A stretch of DNA of 63,550 nucleotides, counting the filler, from Neolecta irregularis DAH-3 (lineage: Eukaryota): NCBI GenBank assembly GCA_001929475.1. It is 11 parts of 11 records of this genome, joined end to end, with 100 filler letters (N's around TTAATTAATTAA, not from the genome) between each part and the next. Parts side by side here need not be neighbours in the genome. Positions count along the whole stretch, not along the records: positions 60,401 to 63,550 come from LXFE01000549.1; 10 more parts are not named here. One strand, written 5' to 3'. Position 1 is the first letter of the stretch. Every line of letters begins with the position of its first letter. The position numbers were made by a program, and so were the translations under genes. Below the pieces are notes generated by a model. The model did not search any database. It worked only from the letters and a program-made list of their open reading frames with translations, and was not told the origin of the DNA. Positions 1,495 to 63,550 of this stretch are shown here, in pieces.

Positions 1495-2447
1495 CTTTGG
1501 AACTATGTGTAAAATGGATGGTGACTAGGTTGTTTGGTTCAGGAACATTTTGGGAAACGGGAGCGGAAAGCAGAGCTTTTACACTAGATTGTAGGAGTTT
1601 ACCTAGGCCGGAAAATTCCAAAAAGATAGTGGTGGAACTCACAAGGAACTAAGACATTTGTATTCTTCGCAGCCTCATGGTGATATAGCTGGACCATAGG
1701 GGAATCTGCGACAATGAAGGAACAAGAACTGTCCTCGCGGAAGTTCTCTTCCGGAAACCTCGTTGTGGCGCATCCGCATGAGGAAGCGTAGGCGCATCCA
1801 ATCGCAGAATCCGACCGCAGAGCCTAATGTAGTCTGAAGATTAATTTACTCTTAAAACACGTCTCATTTGCATGCTTTAGGTAAGCATGGCGGAGATGAA
1901 TACCTAATGGCTTCATTTTATGATCCCAATATCCCGAGAACTGTATGATATTTTTGCACGAAACACCACAGGTAATGATTGCAGCAGTAGCTCCCTGAGT
2001 CTGATCGAGATTTAGAACTATGATTGTTGGTAAAGCGTTAATACCGAAAAGGGAGTTCGTCCTTTTAGGTTTTACGAGATTCTCAGACCATTTTGAAGGC
2101 GCGAAACAAGAGAACCGGGATTCCTCATTTTCAAAGGTTGTTCCGCTCGCTACTTTGTCACAAAAAAGTAGTGAGACAATGCGCGCCTTCCTCTCCTTGT
2201 GCCCGCCATTGATGCCCAACCTTCTGTTGTCCTCTATCATGCCAATCTTCCAATCATCCCTTTATAATTCCTCCATTTCTCTATTCTATCCCACGCTCAA
2301 ATATATTCATATGGAGCCGGGATTTCCCTTGGAAAGACAGAGATAGAAAAATCTTGTAAATACTGAAGATGACATATTCCAAGAAATTCGGGAGTCCCAG
2401 AGGTACCTGGCGTAAATTCGAAGAGTATATATCAAGATATTGTTTAC

Positions 2448-4467
2448 TTATACCGTTACTTCCCAGATCTTAATGGCATCACCACCAGAGGTGACAATTC
2501 TTGTATTGTCTATCCATCTGACTCCAGTCGCACCACCCTTGTGCGCATTCTTAATCGAAATGTTTTGACTCGGTCTCTCAATTGAATAAACAAAAATGTT
2601 AGTATCTAGACTTGAGGTTGCGGCATGAGATCCAGAACCATTCCATGCAATTCCCGTAATTCTACCGGTATGGTAAACCCATTTTGAAGTATGAACTTTG
2701 TAATCGGGCAACGAATATACTGTGATTCGGCCGCTTGATTCCCCTGCCGCTAAATGTGTCCCAGTTGGTGAATATGATATATATGTGACAGCAGAGCGAT
2801 GGATGGTGAAGGCGAGGTCTTCGGAGGGCATTGTTCCGTTCAAGGTGTATACATGTATCGAATTGTCCTGAGAATAAAAAAGAGAATACGGTGAGTACCT
2901 ATACCGTAGCTCCGACAGCAAACTCCGCCTTCAAAGGATGCGCAGCGACGCTTGATGGTTCAAAGGTAGTTGCAAGATCATGAACGGACTTTCCGCTTTG
3001 TAGAATATGTATTTTTGAATTAGTAATGATAATTGTTATGCCCCCAGCAATTGCTAGACCCCTTGGTTGATCTCCTAAGGGCTGTATTGAAACGCTAAAT
3101 AATGAAAAATAACATTACTCATCATGGATGTACCTTGAACTCTTCGAACTGTAATCCATACTTCGGAAGGTATCATCCATAGCCACGCTATACACAACGG
3201 TTTCATTGCCTTCTACCTGAATAACCTGATTCGTGTGAGCGTTAGAAGCCCTAGCCGAACCAAAGGCAGTATCCCAAAGACAGATTCGACCATCATATGA
3301 CCCCGAGAATATCGTATTAGAATCCTGGGATATTCCGAGAGCAGTTATGGATTTCTGATGACCAGATATATTCCTCGTAGGCTTTGCAGAGCTACGATCA
3401 AGGTAATTGATTGTCCCGTCGTATGAAAGAGATATCATCTGTGATCCTGCAAAGACGTTTCCGACTTGTTGATGAGTCGGAGAAGGAGTCGCTGAGAATG
3501 ACCAAGTTCTAGTATGTTAACCAAAGCAAACATAGGGAGCATGCGTAACAATTCTGTTCGCCGCGATGTCCCACAGTTTTGTAGTATGATCCGCACTCGA
3601 AGTCGCCACAAATTTAGAGGAAGGATCCCAAGAGACAGAAAAAATTGATCCTCTATGACCTTCAGCGCTTCTTAGTTCAGTGATTGTTTCTCCAGTATTT
3701 CCATTGTGCAAAAATACTTTTGCATCGGCACCGACAGTGATGAATGTTTCTCCATCAGGCGAAAATCGGACGTCGTGGACGAAATTACTATGAACAGATA
3801 TAGTAGTATTATACCTGTACGGTACACCATGATAGAACACAATGTTGCGGTCATCAGAGACAGTAGCGGCTCGAAAGGGCCGCTGACGTCGAATAGAGAC
3901 AGCATTGATTACCGCAGAATGACCTTGTATTTCGCCAACTGAATTCCCAGAATCAAATAAGAATGCATGGCCAAGCCTTGCAATTAGAAAAAGCCCAATC
4001 TAGAGGTTGAGAATGCCTCTCTTTCCCATTCCCAACCGCAATCACTCGTTTTGAGTCTTCATCCCAAGAAAGATCGTTTACGCGACCTGAAATAACTTTG
4101 ATTTCATTCTTCAAGATTGATTCTTCCCTTGTGGCATCCCAAATTCTGACAATTCCATTATCATCTGGTTGATTACCAAGTGTTCGAAAGTGGTATAAGT
4201 ACCAGCTGAAGCAACATAATAACCGCTTGGAGAGAACTTTGCAACCGTAGTTGCAGCAACATGTTGTGTATACTGCTTCGAGAATGCGGGATTGTCGATA
4301 TTTCGAAGGAATATCGAACGATTTGAAGCATATGCCAATTGCTCTTGTTTGGGATCGACTGATAAATGAACTGGTTGACCGCGGTGCGTAGTTGGTTGAT
4401 TTGCAAAAATTGACACTGATCGCATTAGATAGAGCAATTCTGTGCTGATACAATTTTTTATAGACAT
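2448..4467 (-). CDS. AIP1: WD40-repeat actin-interacting protein 1 (Aip1/WDR1), multi-exon
   Basis: PTTHRGQPVHLS, YTQH..TTVAKFSPSGYYVAS, ISGRVNDLSWDEDSKRVIAVG, HSNFVHDVRFSPDG, GHQKSITAL and WVYHTGRITGIAW...AATSSLDTNIFVYS are spread across consecutive exons. Confidence 0.92.
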
Positions 4468-4710
4468 GGCTTATAATTTAAAATCTGAAGAGAAGTTATA
4501 GGGTTGGTGTTTTGTTATCAGGCATTCACTGCCGTTGTTCAGAGCCATATTAGTCATTCGTAAAAGAATGAATACAGAGTACAAAAACAGGTCAGGATTG
4601 TAGACCCCAACCGCTAAGTTGGCCCTGGTCCTAAAACTTGAATACAAAAATGAAGGAAATAAAATAAAAAACAAAAAATTAGAGAAGTCTGACCCAAAAT
4701 ACGAGTGTCT

Positions 4711-9397: not shown

Positions 9398-12300
9398 ATG
9401 GCCGCTTCCTTACTTCCCAGATGTTTTCCATGTATTGTTCAAGCGTTATACTCCTGGGGTGGAGAGAATAAAGGTTCGCCTGAGAAAGCTAGCGTTGCAC
9501 CACTGAGTCGTAGGTGACTTGGGGTTCATTGAGGGGGATACAATCGAAGCATTAAATGCAGGAGATGGGCAATGGTGGTTTGGAAGATTACGGCGGAATC
9601 GAACAACTGGGGTTTTCCCGTCAAATTTCGTTAAAGTGCTGTATGGAGGATTCTCTTCATAACAAAACTAATCACCAAGTGATGACTCTTCAATTGTCCC
9701 GCGACCAGCAGGTTCGGCTTCGAGATGTCGGTCTACAACTCCTAGTCGAGAGCTGTCAAAGTCAAGACCTACCACTCCGTATGAGAATCAATACTTGACT
9801 AGAGCAACAACTCCCCACGCTTTCCCTGGTCATCCTCAGTCCTCTATGCAATGCATACCTCCCACTTCGCGATCACCTTCTCCCGAATTACACAACAATA
9901 GATCGCCTTTTGCCCAAAATCGTTACCCACGAAGTTCTTCCCCACCACTGTATGTTGCGAGAAGCCCCTCTCCCAAGCCTATTTCCAGAGCTTCTTCGGC
10001 CCAGCCGCACTATTCGAGAGCATCATCTCCGCAGCTATGTTATGATAGGCCGACTTCTCCTCAATCATACCAAGGAAGAACTACAAATCCTTTAGATCCA
10101 CCTGTTCCTCCACCACATCAACAGCCACGTGTTCGCAGTCCGTCTCCTCGGCTTAACAGAACTCCTTCTCCTTTAAGGTTCGCAATGCAAGATGTCTTGG
10201 AATCTCTGGAGGGTTTGAGAAATCCAAGTCCAGATGTTTCGGCTTCGATACCGTATCATCCCGATGACAAGGAAGATACCGAAGATGAACAGTATGATGA
10301 TATAGTACCCCGTCGCCCGAACACTTCGTTGGGTCACAGTACAAAGTCTGCATGGCGTGATTCAAATGGAATAAATCAATATCCCGAAGATATGAAGCCA
10401 CCTGTTCCCCTCACGTATGCCGAACGGATGGAAAACAAGATTTTGAGGATAGAAGAAGGAATATCCCGTTCTGGAGATCCAGTTAGGTTTCCAACACCAG
10501 CTCCTCCTCCGCATCGTTCGGGAACCTTCCGATCTAACCATTCTTACCAGCAATCGGTCTTTTCTGGACATTCTCATTCGACAAACGCGACAAGTATTTC
10601 TGGTTGCAGTGCGGCTTCAGGTGCCTCACATGGTCGTTGTAAACGAACCATGGATTTCGGAAGTGTCCCTTCTGAGCAGCCCGTAACTAGGAGTACCACT
10701 AATTTTGATCGACCTCATACGTCCATGTCAGTCATGGGTCCTCCTCCTATTTTGAAGACAAAGAAAAGTGGTTTGATGAAGGGAAAAATGATATTTACCA
10801 AGATTCTTGGCGTGGGAAATTCGAATATCAAAAATGTTCATTCGATTCAACCAACCGGAGCAGGGTGGCAGGAAGCTCGGCGAGATGTCAATCGGTCGAA
10901 CAGTCCATCATTGAAGGAGCGAGAGGAAAAATGGAGGAATATCGAACTTGAAGGATATAAAGTTCTTGAACCAATCGTGATTTTGGAACAAGAAGTTGAT
11001 GGTGATGAGAATGCGAACGGTGGGGTTGTCGAGAGCAATTCCCGCCTAAACATAGACAGTATGCTTTCGGTCAGATAAAAACTAATTCTAGAACTCAATT
11101 TCTCGTTAGTGGATAAAACTACAAGATATATAACAACATTACCTCCCCATTCAACGCCGGCAAACCTGGCTACTGGCCTGATTTGTCGTCCATATCGAAA
11201 TGACATCCAAAGACTTCGAGCTATTTTCGTCTTTCTAGCTGAAAAGATATCCTGGGAGAATGGAATGCTTGATCGCGAAGACGATGACTCTATATGTCGA
11301 CGAGTCCTCAAAACCCGTAGGGCAAGTTCAGACGAGCTTGTCGTTGTTATGCGGGCAATGTGCGAAGGTATTGAAATCCCTTGTGAGATCATTCGTGGCT
11401 ATATCAAAAGTAAGTTTGGAATACATATTGCGACTGACAGAACAGCGCCAGGAGAAGTGATTGATATTGACTCAAGGCTTAAATCAAACCATGTATGGAA
11501 CGCAGTACTCGTTGAAGGAGAGTGGAGAATTATTGATGCGTCACTCGCGAGTCCAACTCATCCTCGTCAGAGGCAATTTTCTAATACGGCTGCTGCTGAG
11601 TCATTTTTTTTCCTTACACCACCCTCGAATGCGTTGTATACTCATTTACCCATAGATTCTCGACATCAGCATATTATTCCTCCTCTGAGTCGCGAGATTC
11701 TCCTTTCACTTCCATACGCTTGTCCAGCTTTCTTTCGATATAATCTTCGACTAGTTAACTTTTATACGTCGCTGCTTCGCCTGAAAGATCTGGAGTGTGT
11801 ACAGATCGATATTCAGGTCCCTGATGATGTCGAATGTGTGGTTGAAACAGAGGCTAGGGCTTTTACTACGGATCTCGAAGGAGATATCTTTGATGGTGGT
11901 GATCTCGAAAGGAAACCAGGACTTAGTCAAGCTATGTGGGTCAACAACCTGAAAATTTTCAGAGTCAAAGGTATACTTCCAGGAGATCAGGCGCGGGGAG
12001 TCTTGAATGTTTATGCCGGAAAGAAAGGGTTGATGGTGCGTTGCCAGTTTCCCAAGTTAATAATCTAGCATTCTATAAAAGACAACCCTCACTCCATAGC
12101 TCTCGCCATTCCTATATCGCATACTGGTGAAAATGCACCATATTCATTCGTTCCAAGACATCCAACCCCACATGCTATGCGTCATGATCTCTATATTCGC
12201 CAACCCCAATGCGAATTTCTCCACCTTAACAACACCTACGTTTTCTCAATCCGCCAATTCCCCTCCTCCAAATTATGCATCACTAAACCCGCAAAGCTTG

Positions 12301-13735: not shown

Positions 13736-13835
13736 NNNNNNNNNNNNNNNNNNNNNNNNNNNNNNNNNNNNNNNNNNNNTTAATTAATTAANNNNNNNNN
13801 NNNNNNNNNNNNNNNNNNNNNNNNNNNNNNNNNNN
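13736..13835. other. Artificial contig linker (N-run, TTAATTAATTAA, N-run)
   Basis: The same 100-nt linker, with stops in all six frames, recurs at about 21480, 23863, 25393, 26546, 43315, 51938, 53330, 58922 and 60301. Confidence 0.98.
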
Positions 13836-14074: not shown

Positions 14075-17000
14075 TTACCTCCACAGTTGATACCACCGTT
14101 GTTCGGCTTCTTCTTCCTCTTCTTCTGCAACCTTCCAGTCCTGAAGAACATTCAAGAAGATATCTTCAAGTCCTATGGGCTTCATTGAATAATATTTTAT
14201 ATTGAGAGCTGCTTTCCATTCCTCCAACATTTTGATTAGCTTTACGATATGGGAAGAGTTTCCAGTTTGGGTAATTTGTAGCTTTATATTTCGATTCAGT
14301 GATTCATCGATGACAATGGACCCTGGATATCTTGATGCAAAAAGGGAACGGGTAGGTCCTGTCGAAGATGTTGTCACTTCAACTTGAATGCTTTGTCCGA
14401 ATCGAGAACGGAGAGTGTCAATAGTTCCAATAGCAAGAACACGTTTGGCAAGAATAGAAACTCGGGTTGAGAGCTTGACAGCTTCGGTCATATCGTGGGT
14501 CGTCAGCAGTACAGCCCGTCCAGCAGAAAGCGAGGGGAATACATCCCAAATAATACGCTTGGCCAATGGATCAAGACCGCAGCTCGGCTCATCAAGAAGT
14601 AGAATCGAAGGATTTCCTGAATGGTAAGCGTTGAAATTACGACCATCTCTTCATACCCAATAAGGCAATTGCTAGACTCAACTTTCTGGCATTTCCGCCT
14701 GATAACTTGGCGCAGCTTTTCTCGGAAAATTGTGCAAGCCCAATGACTCGGATCACAGTCTCAATGTCTTGATGTCGCTGACTTTTAGGAATTCCCTTGA
14801 TATCCGCATAGAATCCTAACTGCTGGCGGACTGTCAAATTATCCTACCATATAAATGACGTGAAAATATCAAACCAAACCTGTGCATCGAATTGCGGACA
14901 AACACCAAGATGCCGTCTAGCTTGACCTCGATTCTTTGTGATAGAATCACCTTGGACAAAAATGTCCCCCTGATCGGCTTTGAGAACGCCTCTAATGTGG
15001 TGAAATATTGTAGTTTTTCCCGCTGAATTCGGCCCACAAATGACCATGCATTCGCCTTTTCGAACGCTAAAAGTAACATTATCGACAGCCTTTAACTTTC
15101 CAAAAGACTTTGAAAGTTGGATGACTTGAAGAGCATCATCTGAGCCATCAAGCAGTCTAATTTCTTCGGCAGTAACATCGGAATTCTTGCTTAAGATTGA
15201 TTTCTCGTAATCCTGATTCTGTTGTCTTCTACGAGAAAAGAGAAAAGAACTGGCATCGTTGCATACTAGAAATATCAAGTAAGCAGCAGATTGAACAACC
15301 AAATAAAAGAAGCAACTTCCATATAAGCGCCAATCTCCCGCAAGCAACTTTTCGTCACCGAGACAGCGTGCTTCAAGTCCGTTTACACCAACAAGGAAAG
15401 CACGGATGAGCGGAATTACAGGATGAAGCCAACCGAGAGTGTAGAATAACAAATTGAGGTTCCTTTTCAGCATTAAAGGATTGGAATATACAAAAATTCC
15501 CACGTTTCCGCCGATGAATATCACAAAGAAGAACAACAACATTGTAGCACTTAACGCAAATGCAGAAAACTGACTCTTTGACTTCAACGAGAGAACATAG
15601 CCTAGTAACGTTGCTGCAATACTGAAGAAGACGAGAACGAACGAAAAGATTCCAAGGCCAAAAAAGGAAGCATTTACTGTTGCTTGTATCTGACCGTTAA
15701 GTACGACGCCGATTAAAATGCTTAGGATAATCATAAGGGGCATTTCATATAACAGATGGCCTGTCCAAACAGCCAAAGGTCTCATTTGATTAGAGTACTG
15801 CAGCGATCGAACGTGTAGAATCTTTTCGTACGTCGGATACATTACCGGAAACGACACCCAAAGTGCGCTCGTGAGCATCAGAAGTCCCAGAAACTGGACC
15901 CATAGGAGGCCACTATCAGCGTTCTTGAGGGTGACATCTCGATATGGTAGGACTCCATACCCTGACTCAAGCTGCAGGCCATCGGACCCTACAAGTTGAT
16001 TGAATCGAATATTATTGACGAGATTCAATAAACCACACCCCTGGATGACATTTCCCTGCAATGGCCATGCAACTATATCTCTTTCTGGGGAAAAGAAAAT
16101 TCCACCAGACATCCTGTATTGAACGTGGTCTTTTTCGGCATTTCGATTTTGCATTTGAAGAAATTCTTCTCGCATATTCTCAGTCGTAGAAACAACAGTC
16201 AGATTTCGTAAGTTTAGTCGTAAGTTTAGAATTGAGGAGGAAGGCATATTCTCGTCAGGACCAAAACATAGCGGACCATATTGATCAATCTCTAAAGGAT
16301 TGAAATGAAGGTCGTGCCCTAGTTCTACATTTTTGTGTATTTCGGAACACGAAGCTTGAACGACCCACTGGGAAGAAACCCATATAACGACACCCACGAT
16401 TAAAACCGTCAAAATGGGGACAAGAAAGTAACCACGTCGAGCAATGAGAAATCGCTTTTTGGCCTGGGCGAGAGCCTGGAAAAAGCTTCCGATTTGACGT
16501 CCGCTTGATAAGTTTATTTTCTCTTCAGTTTCGTGGTCTTCTATGTTTATTGCAGCCATTTCCTCTTTGGCAAGTTTCAGGAATACTTCTTCTAAAGTGG
16601 GCCCTTGAATGGAAACAATCTCCTCCGTGTCCAAGCCATCGAGTATCTTTGTAACGGCAATGGGATCTTTAGCAAAGTATTGTTCATCTTTAGCGCAGAC
16701 GGTATACCCGTTTCCGAGTGTGTTCCTCAATTCTAAAGGTTCGCCGAAACATTTTATGACTCCATTCGACATAATCGCAATCCAATCGCTAAGTAGATCT
16801 GCTTCTTCGAGGTAATGAGTCGTTTGAATGAATGTGCGTTTCCCTCGATTTGCGAGGAGGATGTTCCAAATTTTTCGACGGGATAAAGGATCGAGACCGC
16901 TCGAAACTTCATCGAGGCAACAGACTATTAACCATTAAACATGAACGACGTAATAAATACCTCTAGACCCCCCGACAAGGGATATAAGAAGCTGTAGCCG

Positions 17001-21414: not shown

Positions 21415-21579
21415 TTTTAATCCTGTTTGTGAGGTCGTTCCACTCATGCCCGCCATTCTCTTCCCCACCGTATCACTCANNNNNNNNNNNNNNNNNNNNN
21501 NNNNNNNNNNNNNNNNNNNNNNNTTAATTAATTAANNNNNNNNNNNNNNNNNNNNNNNNNNNNNNNNNNNNNNNNNNNN

Positions 21580-43600: not shown

Positions 43601-43655
43601 NNNNNNNNNNCGCCGCTGAGCTTAGCAGTTTGTGTTTGGCCTCACGTCATCCCTG

Positions 43656-47153: not shown

Positions 47154-48977
47154 TCAGATTTGTCTCAAATTGGACAAAAGCAACAGCGCGTCTAGTATCG
47201 TGTATAAATTTCCCCGGTAGTCTACATGAATTCTCCAGACGAAAAAAATACCACCGCTTTAAGCGTCGTTCAGCTCGACGGAGCCGTTCATCGCCTTTCT
47301 TTCCTTGCAATTCCAGATATTCTACAAGACGGAGACATTACCGCCTACTAAAAGTGCGTACTTTTGCAAATCGTCAAAAGTCAAATGTAATCGACATTGG
47401 GCAAGACTTCCGAAGAGGGAACTTGGATCGTTCAAGTCAATCTTCACATTCTTGGGATGCGTCAAAAGCCGAGATATACGAGAAAGCATTTACAGTTTCC
47501 ACTAGGTCATATAGCAGACATGTATTCCGTCCTGCGTTTCCTGATCCTGGAGATATCTGCATCCAAACTCTGGTTTGTGGCAAGCCCATCGCTGCCTATT
47601 TTACAAAGGATGTGCCTTCAATTGCATTCTTTCGCAATACTATATCGCTGCAACCAACTACCCAGTCTGCTTCAGAGTCATTGCTCATAACGCACATTAC
47701 ACGAAATGCAGATCTGTATGCAATCCGAAGCCGCTCAAAGATTATTAACTTTTCTCATCAAAAGCTGAAAAATCTCATGTCGGTTAGCCTTCGGCTTAGC
47801 CATCTCGCACTTGGTTTATATACAATAGCATCACCACGAACATTTGTAATGCATCATTCGATCCTTCAGCTCACTGGCCGATTTGATGTCAGATGGCTGT
47901 CAAAACTCGTGGATCAGACATTTGACGCAGAAAGTCTACAAAGTAGGATTGATCGTCTACTGGTTACTGCTCTACCGCAAGATCTTCGCGTAACAAAATA
48001 TGAAGGGTATGTTCTTAGTGTGTCTGTCTGTCCCCCTGAGGTATACCACAATCTCGCTAGTTCTTTTGTTCAGCTTATAGCGAGGGCAGATATTGTCTCC
48101 TGTTTTGCAGCTCGAGATTCCTGAAAAAAAGACCAAGTGTTCAGTACCTCTTCAAAGTTTCACTACTGTCACAAAACGAATCTCTTTTGATGGAAAGAAC
48201 GATATCTTACCGCCTATCATCACTTCACATCATATCCTGCACGAGGAAATTTACAAAAGGGCTTCACCCGAAATAGTATCTCCCGGGTTGTCTGAGAATA
48301 TAGCCCAATTGGAAGATTCGACACTTGTTAACGATTGGGAATACACGACCTTGCAATCTACATGCGCTCAAGCTGACAATATCAAAATTTTGCAAAAGCC
48401 GGATAGATGTTTGAGCTTAATAGAACCTTGTACATCTCCAAGTTCAAAGGAAATTTTACTACGAGAAATTGGATCTTGCGAAATCAAACTGAAGAAAGCA
48501 AGGCGTCGACCTTTTATATTCCAGCTCGACGAAACACTTACTAGAAAAACCCCGAATGAAATTCTTCCGAATCCGAATGTGGAGTCTGACGTTGAGCACA
48601 AGACCTCTGCCTTGGTAGCCGAGTTGAAAGCGAAATTTGAGTCTGAAAGGAGATGGGCAAGTCAGCGTAAAAGTCTTTGTGCCAATTTAAAAAAGGAGCG
48701 AGAAAACAGTTTACAAACGGAATCTGCGACGTCGTCTCTTAAAGTAGCACGAGTACGTTTTTCCGACAAGACTAGCGAACGTGTACCTTGTCGTGGTCTT
48801 TACTTGATGAAACCGAGCGACGGACTTCATCTCTTGACGACCTCTTGTAAACACAGAATGACCGGGAGAAAGTCTGTTAAAAGTCTCATCTCGCAATTCG
48901 AATTGGTTGGTGGGAATATTCCAATAGTTGAAGGTGAACCAAAGATCTTCTACTTTGATACAATTTTGTTTGGGTAA
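47154..48977 (+). CDS. Hypothetical protein (two exons)
   Basis: The 334-aa and 294-aa ORFs are joined in phase by a 40-nt GT..AG intron at 48041-48080. No family recognised. Confidence 0.55.
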
Positions 48978-52037: not shown

Positions 52038-53329
52038 TAGGGGGACGGAAATAACCCTAATTAAGGTAAGGATCCCCATAAAGAAATGAAAATATACAAA
52101 AAACTTAAAATCCATAATTTAATTATGGTAAGGACTTTTTCTTAATCCATTTACACCCCTAAGAATATACCGGGGCAGGATTTCCGTGTAAAGTCTCTGA
52201 GGGAAGGTAATAACACCCTGCTCATAATCTGAATTTTTATTATTATTATCACCAAAATTTTGGGTGCCCCGAATCCAAATATACCGGGGAAAAACACCGA
52301 AGCAAACGAGCCAAGATATATTTTAGGGTAATCTAAATGTTCAGATCATATAGCATATTTCGGATTATAATAAATTTCTTTTCAGAAATAAGGGCTTTAA
52401 GTAACCCATACCCCACAGGACATTTTGTAAAAGGCTTTGGGTATGCTCTTTTTTAAAATCTTTAGTGGGTTTTTAATTGGAATAACAAATTATCTGGTAA
52501 CTTATTTGGAACTTAATAACGTAAACATAACAATTTTCCCAAAAGTAAACATCAGGTAGATGATATAAGAAATAATTTAACTTAAACGTTTCGAATTCAT
52601 TCTATCTTTAATTTTTTTTATTTCTTCAAATCCTTCCTGAGTCTGATCTAAATTTTTGTGGATTCATTCGGCAATCATACAAAAATCTAAAAAGTTTAAT
52701 TGGTTTACACCATAAATTGGATATTGCTTAAAGAAAGGTATAAGCTTACTATAAATACCATTAAATTCATTAACTCTAAATACTACTAACAGATTGCTAC
52801 TAGATTTCTCAATCTGACCTGTACCTAGACATTTACAGAAACTTTTCAATAATTCTATTTCACGAAGATCTATAGAAAGAGAAAAATCTAATGATACATT
52901 AAACCCTCAAATTGATTTGATACACTTGGTAATCTTACACTTAAATACTCCTTTAGCCGAAGCTGCGCCAGCTAGAAAATTCAGATTGTCAATTTCTTTT
53001 TTTACAATTGGAGGTATATTTTCTAATTGAATATTTGGGAATGCTATTTTGAATTTCTCCGGAATAAAGGAATGAAGAGTACATTTAAGATTTAAGATCT
53101 TTTGAAAACCCTCAGAAGTATATCGTTCTTGCTGCGCAGCTAGATTTAAAATATCTTTAAATATAATTAAATCGTCTTGTTTATGCGTTAATAATGGGAA
53201 CTTTTCAAAAAAGTTCGGCGGGGGAGGGGCTTCGCACCTCCCCTGTTGAACCTACGAAATTTTCAAGAAATGTAAATGCAAGCAAAGCTCTCGGGGGAGG
53301 GGTTAGGTAGGGCGGGAGGTTCTCTGAGC
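52038..53329. other. Mitochondrial DNA contig or NUMT (AT-rich with GC clusters)
   Basis: Abrupt AT-rich composition, short G/C runs, and an ORF that is open only if TGA=Trp. Confidence 0.75.
52577..53213 (-). CDS. Two-motif LAGLIDADG homing endonuclease/maturase, C-terminal about 210 aa (genetic code 4)
   Basis: FFEKFPLLTHK..EGFQKILNLK..NFLAGAASAKGVF..IPFFKQYPIYGVNQLNFLDFC.IAE(W)..TQEGFEEIKKIKDRMNSKR. The frame is continuous across two TGA codons. Confidence 0.85.
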
Positions 53330-53623: not shown

Positions 53624-53633
53624 NNNNNNNNNN

Positions 53634-55550
53634 TTTCTTGATGTTCTCACTTCCTTTCATGATACTTCGGATTTCTTCCGGATCCTGTAGCGCGGCGATT
53701 GAACTAAGCGGAGGACGCTCATCTCCAAACATTCCACCCAAGAATCCATTCTTCTTCGCCTGGGCGTAGCTTTTCGCTCGAAGAGTTTGAACTTGGCTTT
53801 TAACAGAATGGTATTTCTTATCCCATTTAGATTTTCCGTCGAGCCAGAGCCTTATAGGACCTGGTTTAACTACGCCAATTATGTTTTTGTCAATGTTTAG
53901 ACACGGAATCTCGGAAGTACACTCCATAGCCCTAATATTCCCGTTGATATCAACGCGCTCTCGAATAATGCTTTTCGTGAAATCGGATATTATCCCTTTC
54001 GGATTCTTGGAAATATGCTTGATACTGGATGACGAAGTAAACCTTGACTCGTTCAATGCCCAGATATGGAAATTTGCAACGGCGCGGTACATGTATTTCG
54101 CAGGCTTTGTGAAACTTAAGGCAGGTGTAACATGACCTAGAGCATCAGCAAAGACTTTACAAGGAGTTTACAGCAAGAATCGTAGACTTGCAAGTAAACT
54201 TGTGTAGGAGGATATCGTTCCAGCTCCCTTCGTTTGAGTGGTGAAAGGCAATCATCCCTTGGAGGGTAAGACTTTGGATCCGAAGCTTTATGAGCTACGA
54301 ATATGATTTCGTCGCGAATCCTTTCCGCCCCACCTGCAATCCATTTAGTCAGCATGAATTAAATGCATGAAGAGTACGATAAATAAGGGACAAAGACCGC
54401 CTAGGCTTGCTTGAAGGACAGGACTGACTAGAGGAAAATCAAGCAATTCGTTCGATGCATAAAGCTGAATCTGTTCTTTTATTTCGACCATAGTCCCATC
54501 CAATTCAATTCGAATTCTTTCGACGGGTTTAACTTGACCTGATTTTGCTTCTTGGACGCTTGTTTCCTCGGCTTTAAGCGATTCATTCTGCACAGCTTCT
54601 AGATCTTCAATTGTGGGAGGTGGCCATGTGATGCTTGGTTTGTGGATGAATCCATGAGCAGGTATATAATCATCTGTATCTTTATCGAGAATGCTTGGAA
54701 AAGAATGAGTGAGATCGACCCAAGGAGATATGAGGCTTGCTCCGGATGGTAGAGGGATTGAAGAATCGCGGAGGATGCACAGAGTGGCTAGGATCAAACT
54801 CCCGCCTGCCGAATCTCCAGATAAAAGAATACGAGACGGCGAAGAGATTGTTAAAAGGTGCAAGTAGCATGCAAGAATGTCAAGAAGGCCGCATGGGAAT
54901 GGATATTGGGGAGCAAGACGATACCGCGGGGCTTGAATATAAGCAAACTGAGTTATGAAGCAAGAATACCGTATGCTCTGGAATTGCACTTCCTTGCGTG
55001 TCGTTGGATCTGATATCGATGTTCATCCGTCCTAGGATCAGCAACTGTACCGAGCAAAGAAATATACGATCCAAAATAATAAGCTCCCCCATGGACGTAC
55101 ATTAATAGGTTCTTTGTCCCCACAACTTCCTTTGGCTCGACGATCTGAATTTGAAGTTTCTTTCTCCTATACATCCACCATCTTCGTCCTCCAACCCTTT
55201 CCAACCCCTCTGGTCCGAGATTTGTGGCCAAAATATCACCTGCGTTCTCTATTATTTCTTCAGGTACATCGACATTCTGCACGAGGACACGCGGGGAAGC
55301 TGGGACGTGCATCGACGTAAACGATTGAATTTCCTCCACCGTATGATGAGAGGCATACTCAAGGAACTTGGAAATAAGTGCGAAGCCCTCATGGTAAGAC
55401 AACTGTTTGGAAGGTTTGTCTTTCAAGGCATTTTGGTTTAGATAGTGAACAAAAAAGGTCTTGAACACAGTACCGGTCCTGATTATTCAGACTTTTGGAC
55501 CAGTCTAGATAATACGTATGAGCAGCAATCGTTGCGGTATTAAAACCCAT
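53634..55550 (-). CDS. Alpha/beta-hydrolase (HSL-like lipase/esterase), multi-exon, 3' end in gap
   Basis: YVHGGAYYFGS, APRYRLAPQYPFPCGL.D, LSGDSAGG, LISPWVDLTHSFPS and GGAERIRDE. Confidence 0.9.
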
Positions 55551-55669
55551 CTTGAGATCCCAGTAGCCGGGGGATTCGGAGATAAGACACTGTCTTGCAG
55601 GATGTCGTCTCCCAAAATGGGAAATCACGTACTTTAATTTCGATCGGCTTTACGAATCAGTCTTGAAGT

Positions 55670-58600
55670 ATGACTGGCCTTCCGTCTGAACTCCAGACAC
55701 TAGCCTCGAATTTCGCACAACGGAGATCAGAAGCTTTCCAAAAAGTACGCATGCGATGTATCTAGACTAATGGAGCAGCTTCGGCCAATCTGCGTTGAGC
55801 TTTCCAACCTTACTCTCTCAGCTTCTCCAATTCAAAATCACAAAGAACTCGTACTAGTGCTCTCAAATCTACTCCAAACGCTTCAATCCATAGATAAATC
55901 AGTATTCGATCAAAAATTGGGCGACTATGTATTTTTCCCCTTCTCCAATCTACTTCGTCAACGGAATGATCTGGGAGATAGAGAGCTGGAACTTCTTCTC
56001 AGATGTCTCGATTATTTGATCGGATCGGCTTGGTCTAGGGGCACTCCTGAAGAGTTATATCGTCAGTTATTCCTGCTGGTCACTTTCATCCTTGGCGGGT
56101 CGCCGGGTAAGAATAACAGCGTGTTGAAGTCGGAAGATTCCAAGCTGGCAGTCGTAAAATGTCTCCAAACTTTGTTTCGTGCAGTCAAGGCATCTTCTAT
56201 TCATCAAAATACAAGAAATCTGTTCGTTGAAGATATTAAAATCTGGCCAGCGTTGGGCCATTGCGTGGTTTCGCTCCTGGATTTGTTAGTCCAAGAAAGT
56301 TTCCCGGTTTTGAAACAGGAGATCTGCCATACAATCTCTTTCCTTTATATCGAGACCATTAGCGATGGCGATATTCTAGCTGCGTTTCTACCTGGGACGG
56401 TCTCGGCCATCTGCAAAGTCCTTCAAGCAGAGAACTTCACTCGACATTCAGATCTTATCTGCGCAGCCATTCGGCTACTCTACAAAACAACTGCGGTTTG
56501 CCTATCTGACAAACACTATGCAGATATTAAAAATGGGCAATCACCTGTCGTTAATAGCCCTGATACCGTGGGAATCGTAAATCGGACAGAACAATGGTTT
56601 GAAGCATCAAAAGGCCAAATTAAAATTGCCCTTGGAACAATATATACCTTACGTTCACATATTCATTCCGCTGTTCGCCTTGCATATTTCGAGATGTCGA
56701 GAACCCTTCTTGAAGATTGTCATCAAACGCTAAAACATTGTTCTGATATGTTTCTTCAGACAATCATGCAATACACACTAGACCCTGATGTTAATCTTCA
56801 AAAGGAAAGCAAGAAGTTTCTCTCATCATTACATGTTGAAAGTGGGTTTGGGGCATTAGTCAAGTCTTCAGTTCAACAGAGTTGTTATAACTGGGTGATG
56901 TCAATGCCTCGAATCTTATCTGGACAAGACGAAAATTCTAAACAGTCTGTTTTAACTAATGTCATTACGGCTGTCGACTTTCTCGGGAACTCAGCATCAA
57001 TGAATTTAATATCAGTTGAATTATTAGCCCAGAATTTGCGAAGCTCTTTAAAATTTGACAAGATTCGTTCGATTCAGACATCAAACCAATTGATTATTAC
57101 AGATGGCAACGAAAAAGTAGATCTTTCTTATCAAAGATTTGAGCTAGAGTATATCAACGACAAAGACACGTTAAACATTCTTGGACAACTCATTTCACAA
57201 CTAGGCGCATCCTCGATCGGGCTCGGATTATCGAGAATTTATCTTTCTGACATTGGACACGAGTCGCAACAATCAGTTTCCTCTTTGTGGCTGTTAATCC
57301 ACCTCCTCGAGGGTGGATTAAAAGCTGATCCAAGCGATCCCGAATTCAGATTATTAATACTAGATCTCTACAATCAGTCATCAATATTCCTCTCTGAGAA
57401 TTCAAGTCCAGATAACTCGGAATTAACGATATGTCTGCACCTACAATCTATATCCCTAGCCTCCAAGCTCCTAGGATCAGACTTTGAAACTGAACTTGTT
57501 CAAGTGCTCTACCTGGTAACGCAATACCTTCCCAACTCTGTAATTCGTTCATTTTCACATACTACGCTACACCATTTGTCGGTAAACCTTGGATACCCTT
57601 CAATTCAATCTCTCCTCATCAAAAACGCGGATTACCTTGTTAACGCCGTATCCCTCCGTTTAAACTGTTTCGATATAACCCCAAACGTTCCAATGGTCTT
57701 TCTAGGCGTCATTAGAATAGCCGGACCAGCTATCATTCCATACCTTGAAGACGTCGTTGACTCGATATTCGGGGTGTTGGACGGATACCATGGATATTTC
57801 AAATTAGTGGAAAGTTTCTTTGTGGTATTGGAAGGCATTGTTAATGAAGTTGCAAAGAATGTCGATGCCCCAAGAATCGAGACTCGAGAATCGTTACTTC
57901 ATGATGGAGTCTGTAAAGAGATTAGAGCGTTTGCACGGTTACTCGAAAGAATGAGAAACGAACAACATGTTGATCCAGAGTCCTTATCGAATGATATGGA
58001 AGCTATTGAAGAAACAGAGGTAGAATCTATGGATATATCCACACCACCCTGTACTTTACATTCTACATCAATAGATATCGTTCGGAAAATAGTTGATAAA
58101 TCGCAATATTTCCTGACTCATCAATCGTCGACTCTTCGATACCGGTTGCTACATCTGATTTCTTCGGCGTTGCCGTTATTAACTACTGCAGAAAAACAAT
58201 TGCTTCCTTTGATCAATGCGATTTGGCCGCCGGTAGTCTCTAGGTTGAAAGACGATGAGTCGCATGTGGTCGTTGAAGCGCTTTTGACTTTGGGGAAATT
58301 GTGTCTCGTTTCAAAGGACTTTATGAGTGTGCGATTCGAAGAATCTGCTTGGCCTGTCATTAAGAATTATCTAAAAGAGTTGCGTGGGAATGTTGTACGA
58401 GATAAGAGTAATCCATACGCGCGACAGTCAAGATTACTTTTTGCGATCTTTGAAACCTTGGAGATGGCCTTAAAGAACATTCGGGTTCTAGATAAGTTGT
58501 TTGATGAAATTCTCGATGCTGTTTGCCAGTTCGGGGAAATTACGTTAGTCAATCAAGTTCAACAAAAATTGGATAGACTGATCGAGGCTTTGAGGATTAT

Positions 58601-58697
58601 CAACGCGGATGCAGTTTGGCTTGAAAAGAGTATACGGTCAAGATCAATCTGTGCTACGCCTTGTAAAGATATATGCGATAATATTATCTTTGCATAG
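55670..58697 (+). CDS. TTI1: TEL2-interacting protein 1 (TTT complex HEAT-repeat subunit)
   Basis: AFQK/LRPICVELS, LGDYVFFPFSNLL, AAFLPGTVSAI, NADYLVNAVSLRL and LLPLINAIWP. It has a short first exon plus a 975-aa exon. Confidence 0.88.
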
Positions 58698-58735
58698 AAA
58701 GAGAGGGGGTTAAACTGGCTATAAGATAACTGCCT

Positions 58736-58921
58736 CTACTCGGAATCCTCATCAGCTTCATCCAACCACTTGAGGAAGGGTTGAGCGGATTTTCGGACTT
58801 TTTTGCTTATTTCCTTCTCAACATAACGCTTACTGGCTTTGGCTCCCCACTTTGAGACAACATCCTCAGAGATAAGGTCATACTCATAATATGCCATGAG
58901 TATTTTGGGAACAGCTGGAAT
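58736..58921 (-). CDS. TIF5: Translation initiation factor eIF5, C-terminal W2 end (partial)
   Basis: VPKILMAYYEYDLISEDVVSKWGAKASKRYVEKEISKKVRKSAQPFLKWLDEADEDSE*. Confidence 0.88.
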   Translation of the reverse strand: MPAVPKILMAYYEYDLISEDVVSKWGAKASKRYVEKEISKKVRKSAQPFLKWLDEADEDSE

Positions 58922-59129
58922 NNNNNNNNNNNNNNNNNNNNNNNNNNNNNNNNNNNNNNNNNNNNTTAATTAATTAANNNNNNNNNNNNNNNNNNNNNNN
59001 NNNNNNNNNNNNNNNNNNNNNGTATGGAATAGACCTTTTGGTATAGGACTCATCATCCATAGACTCTTCGCCCGGTACTAAGCTAAGTCCCTTGTTGGTA
59101 GTAGCATAGCGTAAGGACAGAGAACCATC

Positions 59130-60240
59130 CTTACATCATCCACACTAATGCAACACTATCTGATTTTCGAAATGCACTATCACACAACATTCCAACAGTT
59201 TTTCTGTGCCCAACAGAGTCTCCGAGTTGGCAGATCTATTGAACAATGAGTGAGAGTGGCATTGGTCTTTGTGAAACAGACGAATTTAAGGCTCTGAATT
59301 CGAAATATGGACCTGCCTTTCAGATTTTGGCAGTTGTGTTAAATAACTAAAGTATGGAGATTTTGAGCAAAGCCGAAAACGCTTGAGAGACTCATTGAAG
59401 ATTTTGGTAAAGCTTTATATCCATGGCCCTTCTGATATCCTAGTTATCCACTGAACCTATTAATGATCACCAACAAATAGCGAAAGATGTTATTAAAGGT
59501 CTTTTCAAGATATTCAGTGATAAGCCGGAAAACTTAAAATACAACAAGATAGACGATTGGGAACATAAAATCTGCCTGCTTTGTGACCAATCACTATACC
59601 AAAGCCAAAGAGGTATTGCCTTGTCGTTCTTGGATATTGCTTATTGTTGCAGGAAACCACGCTCGGTGTTGTCTATTGTAGATGCAACTGTGCAACTAGA
59701 TAAATCTGTGGAAAATATACAGGATCCCACACTGGATCCCATAACGCCACCAGTATATGAAATAGACGAGTTGATGGATCTTCTGGACAATAAGCCAGCG
59801 AATGGCATTGCTCTTTGCGATAGAGCCTTATATAATACTCTGAGAGCGAATTATGGATGCGCCTGCCATATTGTGGCAGTCGTTTTGAAGGGTTGCCAAC
59901 CAACTATCGACCACTTCACAAGTTATCACAATTTTGAGCAAAGTTGAAGACTTTTGAGAGACTCATTGCAGTTTTTGGAAAATTTTATGACTATGACCCT
60001 TCTGATATTCTAGTTTTCTGCATTAGAGCCCACCAATGACTTCAAACAAAAAGCAAAGGAAGTTATTGAAGGTCTTTTCATGGAAGCCAGTCAAGATCAG
60101 CCGACAAACTAGGAATACAGCAACAAGCAAAAGAATGGGCATGCAAGGTCCTTGCGCCTACTTTGCGACCAATCACTTTGTCAACGCCAAAGAGGTATTG
60201 CCTTTTACTTCCTAGATGCTGTTTATTGTTGCATGAGTCA
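59130..60240 (+). pseudogene. Two diverged tandem (about 575 bp) copies of the orphan domain family, interrupted by stops
   Basis: GIGLCETDEFKALNSKYGPAFQILAVVL (about 59257-59343) and GIALCDRALYNTLRANYGCACHIVAVVLKGC (about 59803-59896). LLCDQSL.Q.QRGIA..FLD..YCC occurs twice. Confidence 0.6.
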
Positions 60241-60400
60241 TACTTCAACTTCTCAGCTGCCTAGAAAGCGAGCAAAAACAGATGATGTCAAAACTGCTGA
60301 NNNNNNNNNNNNNNNNNNNNNNNNNNNNNNNNNNNNNNNNNNNNTTAATTAATTAANNNNNNNNNNNNNNNNNNNNNNNNNNNNNNNNNNNNNNNNNNNN

Positions 60401-63349
60401 AGGGCAGCTGGTATTGATGGAATACCTTATGAGATATACAAAAACTCAGACCTCAAAGATCTGATAAGAAGACCACTCAGATTAGCACTAAACCAAATGC
60501 TAATGGAAGGGCAAGTGCCAGAGACATTTAGTAAAGGAATAATAACCTTACTACACAAAAAGGGAGACAAAGCATTAATTAAGAATTACAGACCAATAAC
60601 CCTATTAAACACAGACTATAAGATCCTTACAGGAATCATAGCAAATAGAATGGCCAAAATAGTTACAGAAGAAGATATTCTTGGCAACCACCAAGCAGCA
60701 TTCCTACCAGGTAGAACTATATCTGATAATATAAAAATGGTACAAGCAGAAATTGACTTCTGTGAACTTGATAAACACCCAGGAATAGCGGTATTCCTTG
60801 ACCAAGAGAAAGCATATGATAGAATTGACCATGACTTCCTATGGAAAGTAATGAGAAGAATGGGACTCCCAGAACAAATCATAAAACTAATTGAAAATAT
60901 TTATGAAAAAGCAGAATCAACAATTAACCTAAATGGACACATGTCCAACTGGTTCAAGTTAAAAAGTGGAGTTCGACAAGGAGACCCACTGTCATGCATC
61001 CTCTTTAACCTAGTTATTGAAACATTAGCACTGGCAATAAAAGAAAATGAATGTGTAAAACCAATACACAACATACAAGGAAACGAAGACTTAAAAGTTC
61101 TAATGTTTGCAGATGATACTGCAGTATTCATAAAGGACATACCATCATGGGTAAAATGCAAAGAATTAATTGACTGGTACTGCCAAGCATCAAATGCAAA
61201 AATCAATTATGACAAAAGTGAAGCCATACCACTGGGAGGTATTGCAACAGGTCTGGAAGAACTACCAGGAGGGATTAAGCTCAAACAGCCAGGATCCTCA
61301 ATAAAATATCTAGGAATATGGTGTGGAAGTAAAGTAAACCACAAGGAACACCATGAAAAGATACTTGAAAATATGCAAAAAGAGGCCATGAAATGGTCAA
61401 TGATACATATATCACTAAAGGCAAGAGTAATGATAACAAAAAGTATCATACTATCAAGACTATGGTATGCGGCAAGGCACACTCCAATGAAACTGAACAT
61501 AATTGAAAAAGCGGAGAAAATTGTGTGGGACTACCTTTGGCAAAAGGAACCATATGGGAACAAAAAGAAAGCAATTATAAATAAAGAAATAGCAATGCTG
61601 CCCCAGAATCAAGGAGGGCTAGGAGTGATGAACATAAAAGCACAGATCACTGCACATAGAATATTCTGGATCCAAAGAGCATCCAAAGAAGTAAAACCAT
61701 ACTGGTATCATCTAGTAGGACAAATGCTAAAAAGTAGGACACTACTAAAACCACAACTATGGAAATCAGTAACACACTGGCCACAACAAATATCCTGGCA
61801 CTCAAGAAGTAAGGCAGATACAGACTGTAACTCGTCAGTAAAATACTGGTGGGATGAATGCTGGTTAAAACAAAACCACCATTGGAAAGCTCCAAAAACT
61901 AAAGAAGACTTGTTGAAGACAATATTCATGTTTGACCCAGAAATGCAAAGTAAAAAAAAGAACATAGTATGGTCAAAACCATGCTGGATAAATGCAGTAA
62001 GATTACAGGAGAATAACACTCCATTTACAATCCAGAAAATAAGTAACGGAAAAAGAATGGTACTAGATGAAAGCTTTCAAAGCCTCAACAGAATAAAAAG
62101 AAGAGCTATGGAAAAAGCAGCAGAAAATGTAATAACAAAACACATTCCCGATAATTGGGTAAACATCATAAAAAGGGATGACAATGAAGAGAGAATATTC
62201 AATATAAATAATATTGAAATAGCAAAAGACCCAAGAGAGATATTTGATAGAATACAAATATCAAACAGAAACAATAGTGAAAAGGTTTTACACCTATATA
62301 CAATAAAACCCAATATCAATAACAACAACATAGAGATTGATATGGAAGTAAACCTAGGAATTGTAACAAAAACCACACACCAAGAAATAACAAAATTCTA
62401 TACAGAAGAACAATCAGAGACATACTTTATGAAGAATCCAACACACCATCCAAACAAGAATATTGAAAATATCCTTGAGAGAATAAATGAACAAAGGCAA
62501 CTCAGGGAAGAAGACCAAGTAAAAAGTCACCACTACTGGAATGCCCTCAAGAATGATGGTATCATACCTGGTGCCCAAGACCTAATGTGGAAAATAGCAC
62601 TCAAAAGAATAACCCTGGGAGAGCAGTTTAACAGGTTAAACCTGCCAGAACTAGTCAACTGTCCAACATGTGGTACAGAACAAACCAGAGCACATCTCTG
62701 GGTATACTGCCCAATAGCACAAAGCCTATGGCAAATGGTATACACCCTATGGGGTGATAGAAGTGGAGAAATTGAGGTAAACTCAAAGATAGAAACATGG
62801 GCAGACCTTGAAGAAACAATAGTAAACCCATACCACAGATCAGAAATCTGGAAAGAACCAAATGAGGTAAAGGCAAACAAACTAGCAATGTGGAACATGT
62901 TAGTAACAGAAGTAGTCTGGACAATATGGAAGGCCAGACAAGAATGGGCATATAACAAAGAACCATATGACTTAAAAACAATAAAAATATGGTATCTAAA
63001 CAGATTAAGATTCAGATACCAACTAGATGAGCAACAAGCAATCTGGTCAAGAAACACAAAATTCACAGAAACAGACCTTACCTCAAGATGGGGGGACATA
63101 AAAAGAAAAATTGGAGCAGGAAGAAAGGCCAAATCCTTCCCAGAACTAAATGAAGACAACGAAAATGATACAGAAAGTAATACAGAAGATAGCTATCTAG
63201 GAGAAAATACTAGCCTATATGAAGGTAATAACAATGACCAAAGAGAAAGTCCTAGTTCTTCTAGGCCCACCCAGATAATGGGGGATAAAGAGAGCCTATG
63301 GTGGCCGTCTCTGGGTAATGAACAATTAATAATGGAGGTCCAAATGTGA
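60401..63349 (+). CDS. LINE ORF2 protein: reverse transcriptase + C-terminal CCHC zinc finger (partial; open from contig edge)
   Basis: RAAGIDGIPYE, KKGD...KNYRPITLLNTDYKIL, HQAAFLPGR, LDQEKAYDRIDH, GVRQGDPLSC.LF, MFADD, KYLG, GGLG and CPTCGTEQTRAHLWVYCP..W.IWKAR. Confidence 0.95.
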   Translation, partial: RAAGIDGIPYEIYKNSDLKDLIRRPLRLALNQMLMEGQVPETFSKGIITLLHKKGDKALIKNYRPITLLNTDYKILTGIIANRMAKIVTEEDILGNHQAAFLPGRTISDNIKMVQAEIDFCELDKHPGIAVFLDQEKAYDRIDHDFLWKVMRRMGLPEQIIKLIENIYEKAESTINLNGHMSNWFKLKSGVRQGDPLSCILFNLVIETLALAIKENECVKPIHNIQGNEDLKVLMFADDTAVFIKDIPSWVKCKELIDWYCQASNAKINYDKSEAIPLGGIATGLEELPGGIKLKQPGSSIKYLGIWCGSKVNHKEHHEKILENMQKEAMKWSMIHISLKARVMITKSIILSRLWYAARHTPMKLNIIEKAEKIVWDYLWQKEPYGNKKKAIINKEIAMLPQNQGGLGVMNIKAQITAHRIFWIQRASKEVKPYWYHLVGQMLKSRTLLKPQLWKSVTHWPQQISWHSRSKADTDCNSSVKYWWDECWLKQNHHWKAPKTKEDLLKTIFMFDPEMQSKKKNIVWSKPCWINAVRLQENNTPFTIQKISNGKRMVLDESFQSLNRIKRRAMEKAAENVITKHIPDNWVNIIKRDDNEERIFNINNIEIAKDPREIFDRIQISNRNNSEKVLHLYTIKPNINNNNIEIDMEVNLGIVTKTTHQEITKFYTEEQSETYFMKNPTHHPNKNIENILERINEQRQLREEDQVKSHHYWNALKNDGIIPGAQDLMWKIALKRITLGEQFNRLNLPELVNCPTCGTEQTRAHLWVYCPIAQSLWQMVYTLWGDRSGEIEVNSKIETWADLEETIVNPYHRSEIWKEPNEVKANKLAMWNMLVTEVVWTIWKARQEWAYNKEPYDLKTIKIWYLNRLRFRYQLDEQQAIWSRNTKFTETDLTSRWGDIKRKIGAGRKAKSFPELNEDNENDTESNTEDSYLGENTSLYEGNNNDQRESPSSSRPTQIMGDKESLWWPSLGNEQLIMEVQM

Positions 63350-63484
63350 AAAAATGGAGGACCAAGAAGGGCCCACCGTGTATGCTGCTTATAATTGGCT
63401 CTATGAAAATAGAGAAAGCTGTGTCTTCTTAATTGTCTGATTTAGGCAGGTACCGCTGGGACCTCTAAAATTAATATGTTTGCC
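60401..63484 (+). mobile_element. Non-LTR retrotransposon, L1/Tx1-like (5' part missing at contig edge)
   Basis: A-rich sense strand with an uninterrupted RT ORF, followed by a 135-nt 3' UTR that abuts 18S rRNA sequence. Confidence 0.9.
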
Positions 63485-63550
63485 AAGACGATCAGATACC
63501 GTCGTAGTCTTAACCATAAACGATGCCGACTAGGGATCGGGCGTGCTCTT
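63485..63550 (+). rRNA. 18S (SSU) rRNA internal fragment, beginning mid-gene
   Basis: AAGACGATCAGATACCGTCGTAGTCTTAACCATAAACGATGCCGACTAGGGATCGGGCG is the conserved eukaryotic SSU helix-24 (790-loop) region. It runs to the window end. Confidence 0.93.

Follow-up and report, generated by a model that had tools for sequence, protein, structure and literature searches.

A candidate 18S rDNA-specific LINE of the L1 group in a Neolecta-like fungus

We describe a retrotransposon found in a 63,550-nt stretch of DNA from Neolecta irregularis DAH-3 (assembly GCA_001929475.1; hereafter the window, by which we mean the whole stretch at its full length). The last contig of the window (LXFE01000549.1) carries the 3' part of a long interspersed nuclear element (LINE), joined directly to a piece of 18S ribosomal DNA (rDNA). 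The best explanation of the combined observations is a many-copy, recently active LINE in a Neolecta-like ascomycete, which inhabits the 18S genes there, invariably at a single site and in sense orientation; its 3' two-thirds are seen here. We consider it likely (with a probability of roughly 0.6) that this is an 18S-site-specific LINE of the L1 group, working by target-primed reverse transcription from a nick in the antisense strand. A stronger statement would be that it represents a strictly 18S-site-specific L1-group lineage with an endonuclease of the apurinic/apyrimidinic type (APE) in an early-diverging ascomycete, and with that the first fungal R-element (an rDNA-specific LINE) and the first L1/Tx1-type element targeting 18S; this we regard as an even bet.

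The contig in question is 3150 bp long, has a GC content of 0.369 and bears the 3' part of the element together with the 18S piece (Table 1). Its plus strand is rich in A (43%, with an AT skew of +0.30 to +0.44). The large open reading frame (ORF) counts 982 codons from the first contig base, or 950 amino acids (aa) when measured from the first ATG. Based on the base composition the chance of 982 stop-free codons is P = 2.8e-32, and the longest open frame among 300 shuffles spanned 163 codons. A first-pass annotation, made from the sequence alone, had described a stop-free ORF of about 980 aa with a LINE reverse transcriptase (RT) and a CCHC finger, and all motifs that it quoted were recovered: the catalytic FADD (aa 236) and DQEKAYD (aa 134) both fall inside the RVT_1 domain, and the CX2CX7HX4C finger CPTCGTEQTRAHLWVYC (aa 754-770, nt 62660-62710) lies within zf-RVT, C-terminal to the RT. 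In total about 550 aa follow the RT. A Pfam scan of the 982 aa returns RVT_1 and zf-RVT alone, and no restriction-like endonuclease (RLE) was found in it.

Behind the stop codon we find the 3' untranslated region (UTR) of 135 nt and then, without an N gap, 18S sequence on the same strand, exactly as initially read. A poly(A) or simple-repeat tail is absent at the end of this UTR. Defined 3' ends without poly(A) are typical of stringent or site-specific LINEs. The UTR has an unremarkable fold (z -1.26), which 22 of 200 shuffles equal. The earlier description of the element as intact holds for the 3' 3.1 kb only and fails for the element as a whole, of which the contig end cuts off the 5' third. 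The N stretch upstream (60301..60400) is no sequencing gap in a scaffold, but the linker at a contig boundary. Ten such identical linkers (44 N, TTAATTAATTAA and again 44 N) split the window into 11 separate contigs; the linkers are artificial, and neighbourhood across a linker is meaningless.

The flank behind the UTR corresponds to positions 1001-1066 of the Rfam model of the eukaryotic small-subunit rRNA (SSU_rRNA_eukarya); the reported match runs from position 989, with a gap over the element end. The junction is placed between positions 1000 and 1001 of this model, in a small internal loop (G/AA, where the slash marks the junction) just 5' of the stem bearing the GAUCAGAUACC loop. An insertion in 18S on the same strand, as originally proposed, is hereby substantiated and given an exact site. 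The match was seen with a 151-nt query and has a score of 37.2 bits, which is under the gathering score of 50; with 55000..63550 as query, or with the whole window at the gathering threshold, Rfam gave no match. The target stretch ...GGGGATCR/AAGACGATCAGATACC fits the eukaryote-wide consensus of Rfam except at one position, and the visible 18S flank differs from that consensus at scattered positions only.

Two public runs, here called X1 and X2, contain the sequence. The first has contigs of up to 42.6 kb and a library kind that was guessed as DNA; its k-mer contigs drop rare variants, and the depth given for a contig is the mean over its whole length. Contigs of X1 cover the 3.1 kb of the element end to end with 0-1 mismatches and at a mean word depth of 3458-4631, and one of them reaches 1617 nt upstream of the element piece in the window. 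Copies of the element are numerous and near-identical. The junction itself is recovered in an X1 contig of 829 nt (record 8; depth 4444, 0 mismatches) that spans 62685..63513 and thereby crosses 63484/63485, running 29 nt into 18S. Given that a k-mer contig extends only via words that are present in the reads, the junction is very probably real, and the chimeric contig against which the first-pass annotation had warned is not indicated. No competing continuation exists in this contig set, since a true alternative would have ended the contig at 63484.

The loose ends listed for X1 number six, of which two are sequencing adaptors, two belong to the empty site and two represent 18S variants. None of the six has non-18S sequence behind the 3' end of the element, and the 18S flank is its only abundant 3' flank; unrelated flanks, which were to be looked for from the outset, are absent among the X1 contigs, where the empty site coexists with the filled one. 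This empty site is represented by two contigs with uninterrupted 18S (...ACGAAAGTTAGGGGATCA; both have ...GGGGATCA directly before 63485), which join exactly at 63485. In X1 the depth of the 18S bin is 72151, a sum over all contigs that includes other organisms, while the junction contig has 4444; on account of this difference we take most 18S units to be empty and the inserted units to be a minority. As the two variant ends show, other 18S variants are present in X1 as well, at least two in number, which diverge from the 18S of the window at 63540 and 63543.

With regard to its class, the best match among solved structures is human L1 ORF2p (9.5e-50), with query residues 3-426 aligned to 471-892 of ORF2p, which is the RT. 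R2 proteins match the RT part alone (query 26-369) at 1e-23 to 5e-16 (best 1.1e-23); the labelled RT references in this comparison of L1 against R2 are solved structures only. Together with the lack of an RLE domain in Pfam, this supports a non-LTR (long terminal repeat) RT of the L1 group (L1 and Tx1 clades) and not of R2, so that the preference for L1/Tx1 expressed earlier is retained. The name 'Transposon tx1' that plant matches carry is an automatic label and does not place the element in the Tx1 clade.

Relatives were searched with a word-based method over 5.8 billion proteins and exhaustively with HMMER over 1.84 billion representatives. In both searches the nearest relative (P0001) shows 37-38% identity. 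The sole closer match is P0245 (371 aa, 100% identical), the annotated product of the same 3150-nt contig; apart from it no match above 42% identity is present among the best 150 (HMMER). Judged by these 150 relatives the lineage is isolated. Residue 1 of the query aligns to about residue 500 of relatives that combine APE and RT: in three of the four relatives scanned (P0001, P0246 and P0003) Exo_endo_phos, the APE domain, is found at about 10-230 and RVT_1 at about 555-805, while Pfam gives RVT_1 and zf-RVT only for the fourth (P0009). As the query starts at about residue 500 of its relatives, some 505 N-terminal residues, the expected APE endonuclease included, would lie off the contig.

In the mechanism that we favour, the N-terminal APE-type endonuclease (off the contig) would nick the antisense strand of the 18S rDNA at 5'-...CGTCTT^TGATCC-3', a position deduced from the 3' junction under the assumption that no target bases are lost. 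With the freed 3'-OH as primer, the element RNA would then be reverse-transcribed directly from its 3' end, which is defined and has no tail. Each insertion would disable one rDNA unit, the cost of which may be buffered by the many remaining units, as with R1 and R2 in animal 28S. Such a site-specific element fits a 3' end without tail, an insertion in sense orientation, an ORF that is open and has its motifs intact, the many near-identical copies and the lack of other flanks, as well as a host with a compact genome and very short introns.

Use of the same site in other organisms was surveyed by scanning metagenome contigs for AAGACGATCAGATACCGTC preceded by letters that exclude normal 18S, a pattern that the junction in the window fits. 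The scan gave six loci (L001-L006), and in all six a non-18S insert ends in ...CG directly before AAGACG; the start of the 3' exon would here fall 2 nt upstream of the LINE junction. An RT was found at none of the six loci (tblastn). Homologues with the same 18S flank, which the first-pass annotation had suggested to search for, were hence not encountered, although this blank is weak, as the pattern would let through no more than about one random upstream sequence in three. Rfam matches a group I intron about 70 nt upstream of the junction in L004 and about 760 nt upstream in L006; the insert of L003 (roughly 500 nt) has no Rfam match at E<=0.1, that of L002 is 40 nt only, and a conserved 3' motif is common to L001, L003 and L005. 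A neighbouring 18S position is thus used by short intervening sequences, and mobile elements seem to have landed repeatedly in this conserved 18S stretch. Group I introns and other intervening sequences of 18S resemble our element in occupying this same stretch. They are, however, short, non-coding or RNA-catalytic, without RT, and would be spliced from the rRNA, whereas the LINE measures about 3.1 kb or more, is protein-coding and presumably inactivates its unit.

A number of points weigh against a site-specific element. X1 and X2 come from one study and not from separate studies, and X1 may be the very sample behind the assembly of the window, in which case it is not independent. The 29 letters of 18S in record 8 are two short of the 31-letter bridging threshold. 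Among the X1 loose ends there is none in which upstream 18S is followed by an element sequence from within 60401..63484, as would be seen for 5'-truncated copies, and the depth is flat; this counts weakly, as the contigs drop rare variants. The X1 sample is mixed (several fungi) or its rDNA is heterogeneous. Furthermore the nearest relative reaches only 38% identity, the six metagenome loci are without RT, and the APE domain, ORF1, the 5' junction and any target-site duplication all lie off the contig. Of the earlier claim of a young 18S-specific element, the junction, the copies, the empty site and the lack of any other flank among the X1 contigs stand; an autonomous choice of site is the likeliest reading, for which neither a 5' junction nor truncated copies nor a further species or relative with the site occupied were found.

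The alternative that profits most from these points is a single chance insertion of a non-specific LINE in one rDNA unit, which was then multiplied by unequal crossing-over and concerted evolution. This would produce near-identical copies with one shared 3' junction, and agrees with the absence of 5'-truncated copies and alternative junctions in X1 as well as with an isolated lineage (nearest relative at 38%) for which no relative was found at the same site elsewhere. Nonetheless we hold it to be unlikely. Such a LINE would depend on source copies at other places, but no other 3' flank turns up among the X1 contigs, and no second copy is present in the remaining 60 kb of the window (blastn, tblastn). 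In addition the ORF is fully open with its catalytic motifs intact, the 3' end is without poly(A), and sense orientation in a highly conserved rRNA stretch is the known pattern of R-elements.

The origin of the element has to be considered along with that of the other contigs. An exon of a saccharopine dehydrogenase gene on another contig (49835-50551, minus strand) encodes a product that is 98% identical to a Neolecta irregularis protein, with next matches at 76% or less. This supports a Neolecta-like fungus (Taphrinomycotina, Ascomycota) as the host and bears out the fungal source given in the first place; the element contig likely derives from the same organism as the gene-bearing contigs. 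Homologues of TTI1 (4 matches, the best named one from Apodospora at 28%) and an atlas search were of no use for placing the host. We take the genome of this host to be compact, with very short introns. Candidate introns predicted heuristically in the window measure 32-40 nt, have GTA donors and restore adjacent open frames; examples are located at about 16925-16960 (minus strand), 48041-48080 and 11059-11091, the 36-nt one in an ABCA-type transporter gene. A term search in the accessible text of the genome paper for Neolecta irregularis (PMC5309816) gave 0 mentions of intron, transpos- and rDNA.

Information bearing on an RNA stage of the element comes from X2, a small run labelled with another organism, whose contigs match the element at 99% or more. 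It has no cover over 63341..63550 and is hence silent on the junction. Three GT..AG stretches of the element are absent from X2 contigs (Table 1), and with 39-40 nt these deletions belong to the size class of the 32-40-nt candidate introns with GTA donors in the host. Because the second cuts into zf-RVT and the third shifts the frame, the three stretches are to be seen as coding sequence that is spliced out and not as true introns. Should X2 be RNA, the element has a transcript that the host spliceosome cuts; should it be DNA, copies that had been spliced were returned to the genome by reverse transcription. Both cases involve an RNA stage. The host spliceosome appears to cut the element RNA at three mini-introns and may in this way hold the element in check. 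Separately, at position 61753 the window has an A where the sole covering contigs of X1 (depth 4631) and X2 (depth 11.9) have a C; a minority repeat variant may have been fixed here by the assembly.

Alternatively, the element and its 18S might stem from a co-sampled organism and not from the Neolecta-like fungus, which would change the host but not the nature of the element. Such an origin would be in line with the further 18S variants in X1 (at least two, at 63540 and 63543), with the GC content of 0.369 against 0.42-0.44 for the gene-bearing contigs of the window, and with the fact that neither rDNA nor a second copy ties the element to the other contigs. On the other hand, the GT..AG deletions in X2 share the unusual size class of the intron candidates of the host, and LINE sense strands are usually A-rich and low in GC. 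We therefore judge this origin improbable.

The possibility that the junction is an assembly or library chimera, formed between an abundant LINE and abundant rDNA, is very doubtful. Both partners are high-depth repeats and the contig is short, ending 66 nt into 18S; moreover, record 8 misses the 31-letter bridging rule by two letters and X1 may share reads with the assembly of the window. Against this, two different assemblers arrived at the same junction with 0 mismatches, and the 29 nt past it require that junction words are present in the reads. A rare chimera beside a true continuation would branch at 63484, where no other continuation is listed, and the break is found exactly where the uninterrupted-18S contigs join (63485). 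Finally, 3' transduction, in which a read-through transcript carried an 18S tag and the copies are dispersed outside the rDNA, is hardly credible: only 66 nt of 18S are visible and the X1 graph merges into the general 18S path beyond 63513, but a source copy in 18S would still be required and neither poly(A) nor a non-18S continuation occurs among the X1 loose ends.

Returning to the site-specific LINE, close counterparts are found among Tx1-clade LINEs of animals, of which Tx1L and Dewa (tRNA arrays) are sequence-specific families. Together with Keno in U2 small nuclear RNA genes and Mutsu, they have in common with our element an L1-group RT, a C-terminal CCHC finger and a multicopy RNA gene as target, and judged by its relatives our element would be APE-type as well. 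They differ from it in host, which is a fungus here, and in target, as the literature covered reports no 18S insertion for this clade; the clade placement of the element itself goes as far as the L1 group only. According to the accessible text of Kojima and Jurka (2015; PMC4640811), Tx1 is one of three groups with most target-specific families, and APE-type target-specific families sit in the Tx1 and R1 clades; Mutsu in 5S rDNA is listed in the accessible part of a 2024 review (PMC10946416).

R7 (18S) and R1 and R6 (28S), from the R1 clade, are likewise LINEs specific to an rDNA site, but have insect hosts and belong to another clade, the best solved-structure match here being L1 ORF2p. R7 is said to have been placed in the APE-type R1 clade. 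The accessible parts of the sources give 18S as the target of R7 of Anopheles (PMC13708176) and, in a 2026 review, list R7 among RLE elements. R8 of Hydra, a member of the R2 clade, also inserts in 18S according to the text available (Kojima et al. 2016, PMC5035012). R8, and R2 in 28S, are similar to our element in using one conserved rDNA site in sense orientation, in lacking poly(A) and in leaving many units empty; however, they have N-terminal zinc-finger/Myb motifs and a C-terminal RLE, whereas here only the RT is similar to R2, and in the relatives an APE is present at the N-terminus. Human LINE-1 ORF2p, finally, resembles the element in its RT (9.5e-50) and in the APE-RT-CCHC layout (predicted for the element from its relatives). 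For human L1 nearly any T-rich site can serve as target, and poly(A) is used, whereas our element is without A-tail, was seen with a single flank and has a longer post-RT region.

For fungi, the visible part of the table of rDNA transposable elements in the 2024 review contains Hideaway (LTR), Ty1 and a Nosema entry (PMC10946416); no non-LTR element inside a fungal rRNA gene is visible in it, the Nosema entry being partly legible. A fungal 18S-specific LINE was not found in the full-text literature searched either (subscription journals, Repbase Reports and supplementary files are outside this scope), and to that extent the initial statement that no described fungal example is known can be repeated. 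As far as the literature covered goes, rDNA-specific LINEs (R1, R2, R7, R8 and others) are described from animals. While the R-element lifestyle is known, the combination of clade, target and host appears to be new.

The remainder of the window provides some observations unrelated to the element. Besides the linkers it has two more gaps, of 10 N each (43601-43610 and 53624-53633). On the first contig, an ORF at 724-1524 (minus strand) with a Retrotrans_gag / Ty3 capsid-like match (8.6e-7) indicates a candidate LTR-retrotransposon remnant. The contig at 52038-53329 (GC 0.325) is probably a piece of a mitochondrial intron, since its ORF at 52664-53251 (minus strand) matches the LAGLIDADG_1 homing endonuclease (3.7e-19) with TGA read as W (code 4). 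The contig at 25493-26565 (1073 bp, GC 0.36) has stops in every frame tried.

Table 1. Features of the element contig, of the linkers and of the stretches absent from X2 contigs; positions refer to the window.
Feature	Position	Strand	Details
Artificial linkers	13736-13835, 21480-21579, ... 60301-60400 (ten in all)		Identical letters
Artificial linker, outside the element	60301..60400		44 N + TTAATTAATTAA + 44 N
3' part of large ORF (ORF2-like)	60401..63349	+	982 codons, open from first contig base; TGA at 63347-63349
Reverse-transcriptase domain RVT_1	60554..61318 (aa 52-306)	+	Pfam, 1e-33
GT..AG stretch absent from X2 contig	61997..62035 (39 nt)	+	GTAAGA..CCAG; in frame, removes aa 533-545; depth 11.9, 1 contig
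zf-RVT (PF13966)	62525..62731 (aa 709-777)	+	Pfam 3.2e-6, just over curated cut-off
GT..AG stretch absent from X2 contig	62559..62597 (39 nt)	+	In frame, removes aa 720-733 in zf-RVT; cut +1, depth 54
GT..AG stretch absent from X2 contig	62992..63031 (40 nt)	+	Frameshift, stop 23 codons on; cut +1, depth 54; spliced reading 860 aa
3' untranslated region	63350..63484 (135 nt)	+	Ends ...TATGTTTGCC
18S rDNA fragment	63485..63550 (66 nt)	+ (sense)	Rfam RF01960, E 3.5e-9; starts AAGACGATCAGATACC; contig ends there

If the site-specific explanation is true, a fungal 18S-specific element of the L1 group would extend the rDNA-specific lifestyle to further hosts and to a further clade, and would point to an APE-type endonuclease that evolved its sequence-specific targeting independently, within a compact genome. 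The splice-like deletions would offer a test case for how transposon RNA is handled by a host with introns of 32-40 nt. The pair of endonuclease and RT could then be a compact natural system for sequence-specific, RNA-templated insertion. Because the 18S flank is near the eukaryote-wide consensus, such a system would be of practical interest beside R2, for RNA-templated insertion at a multicopy safe site.

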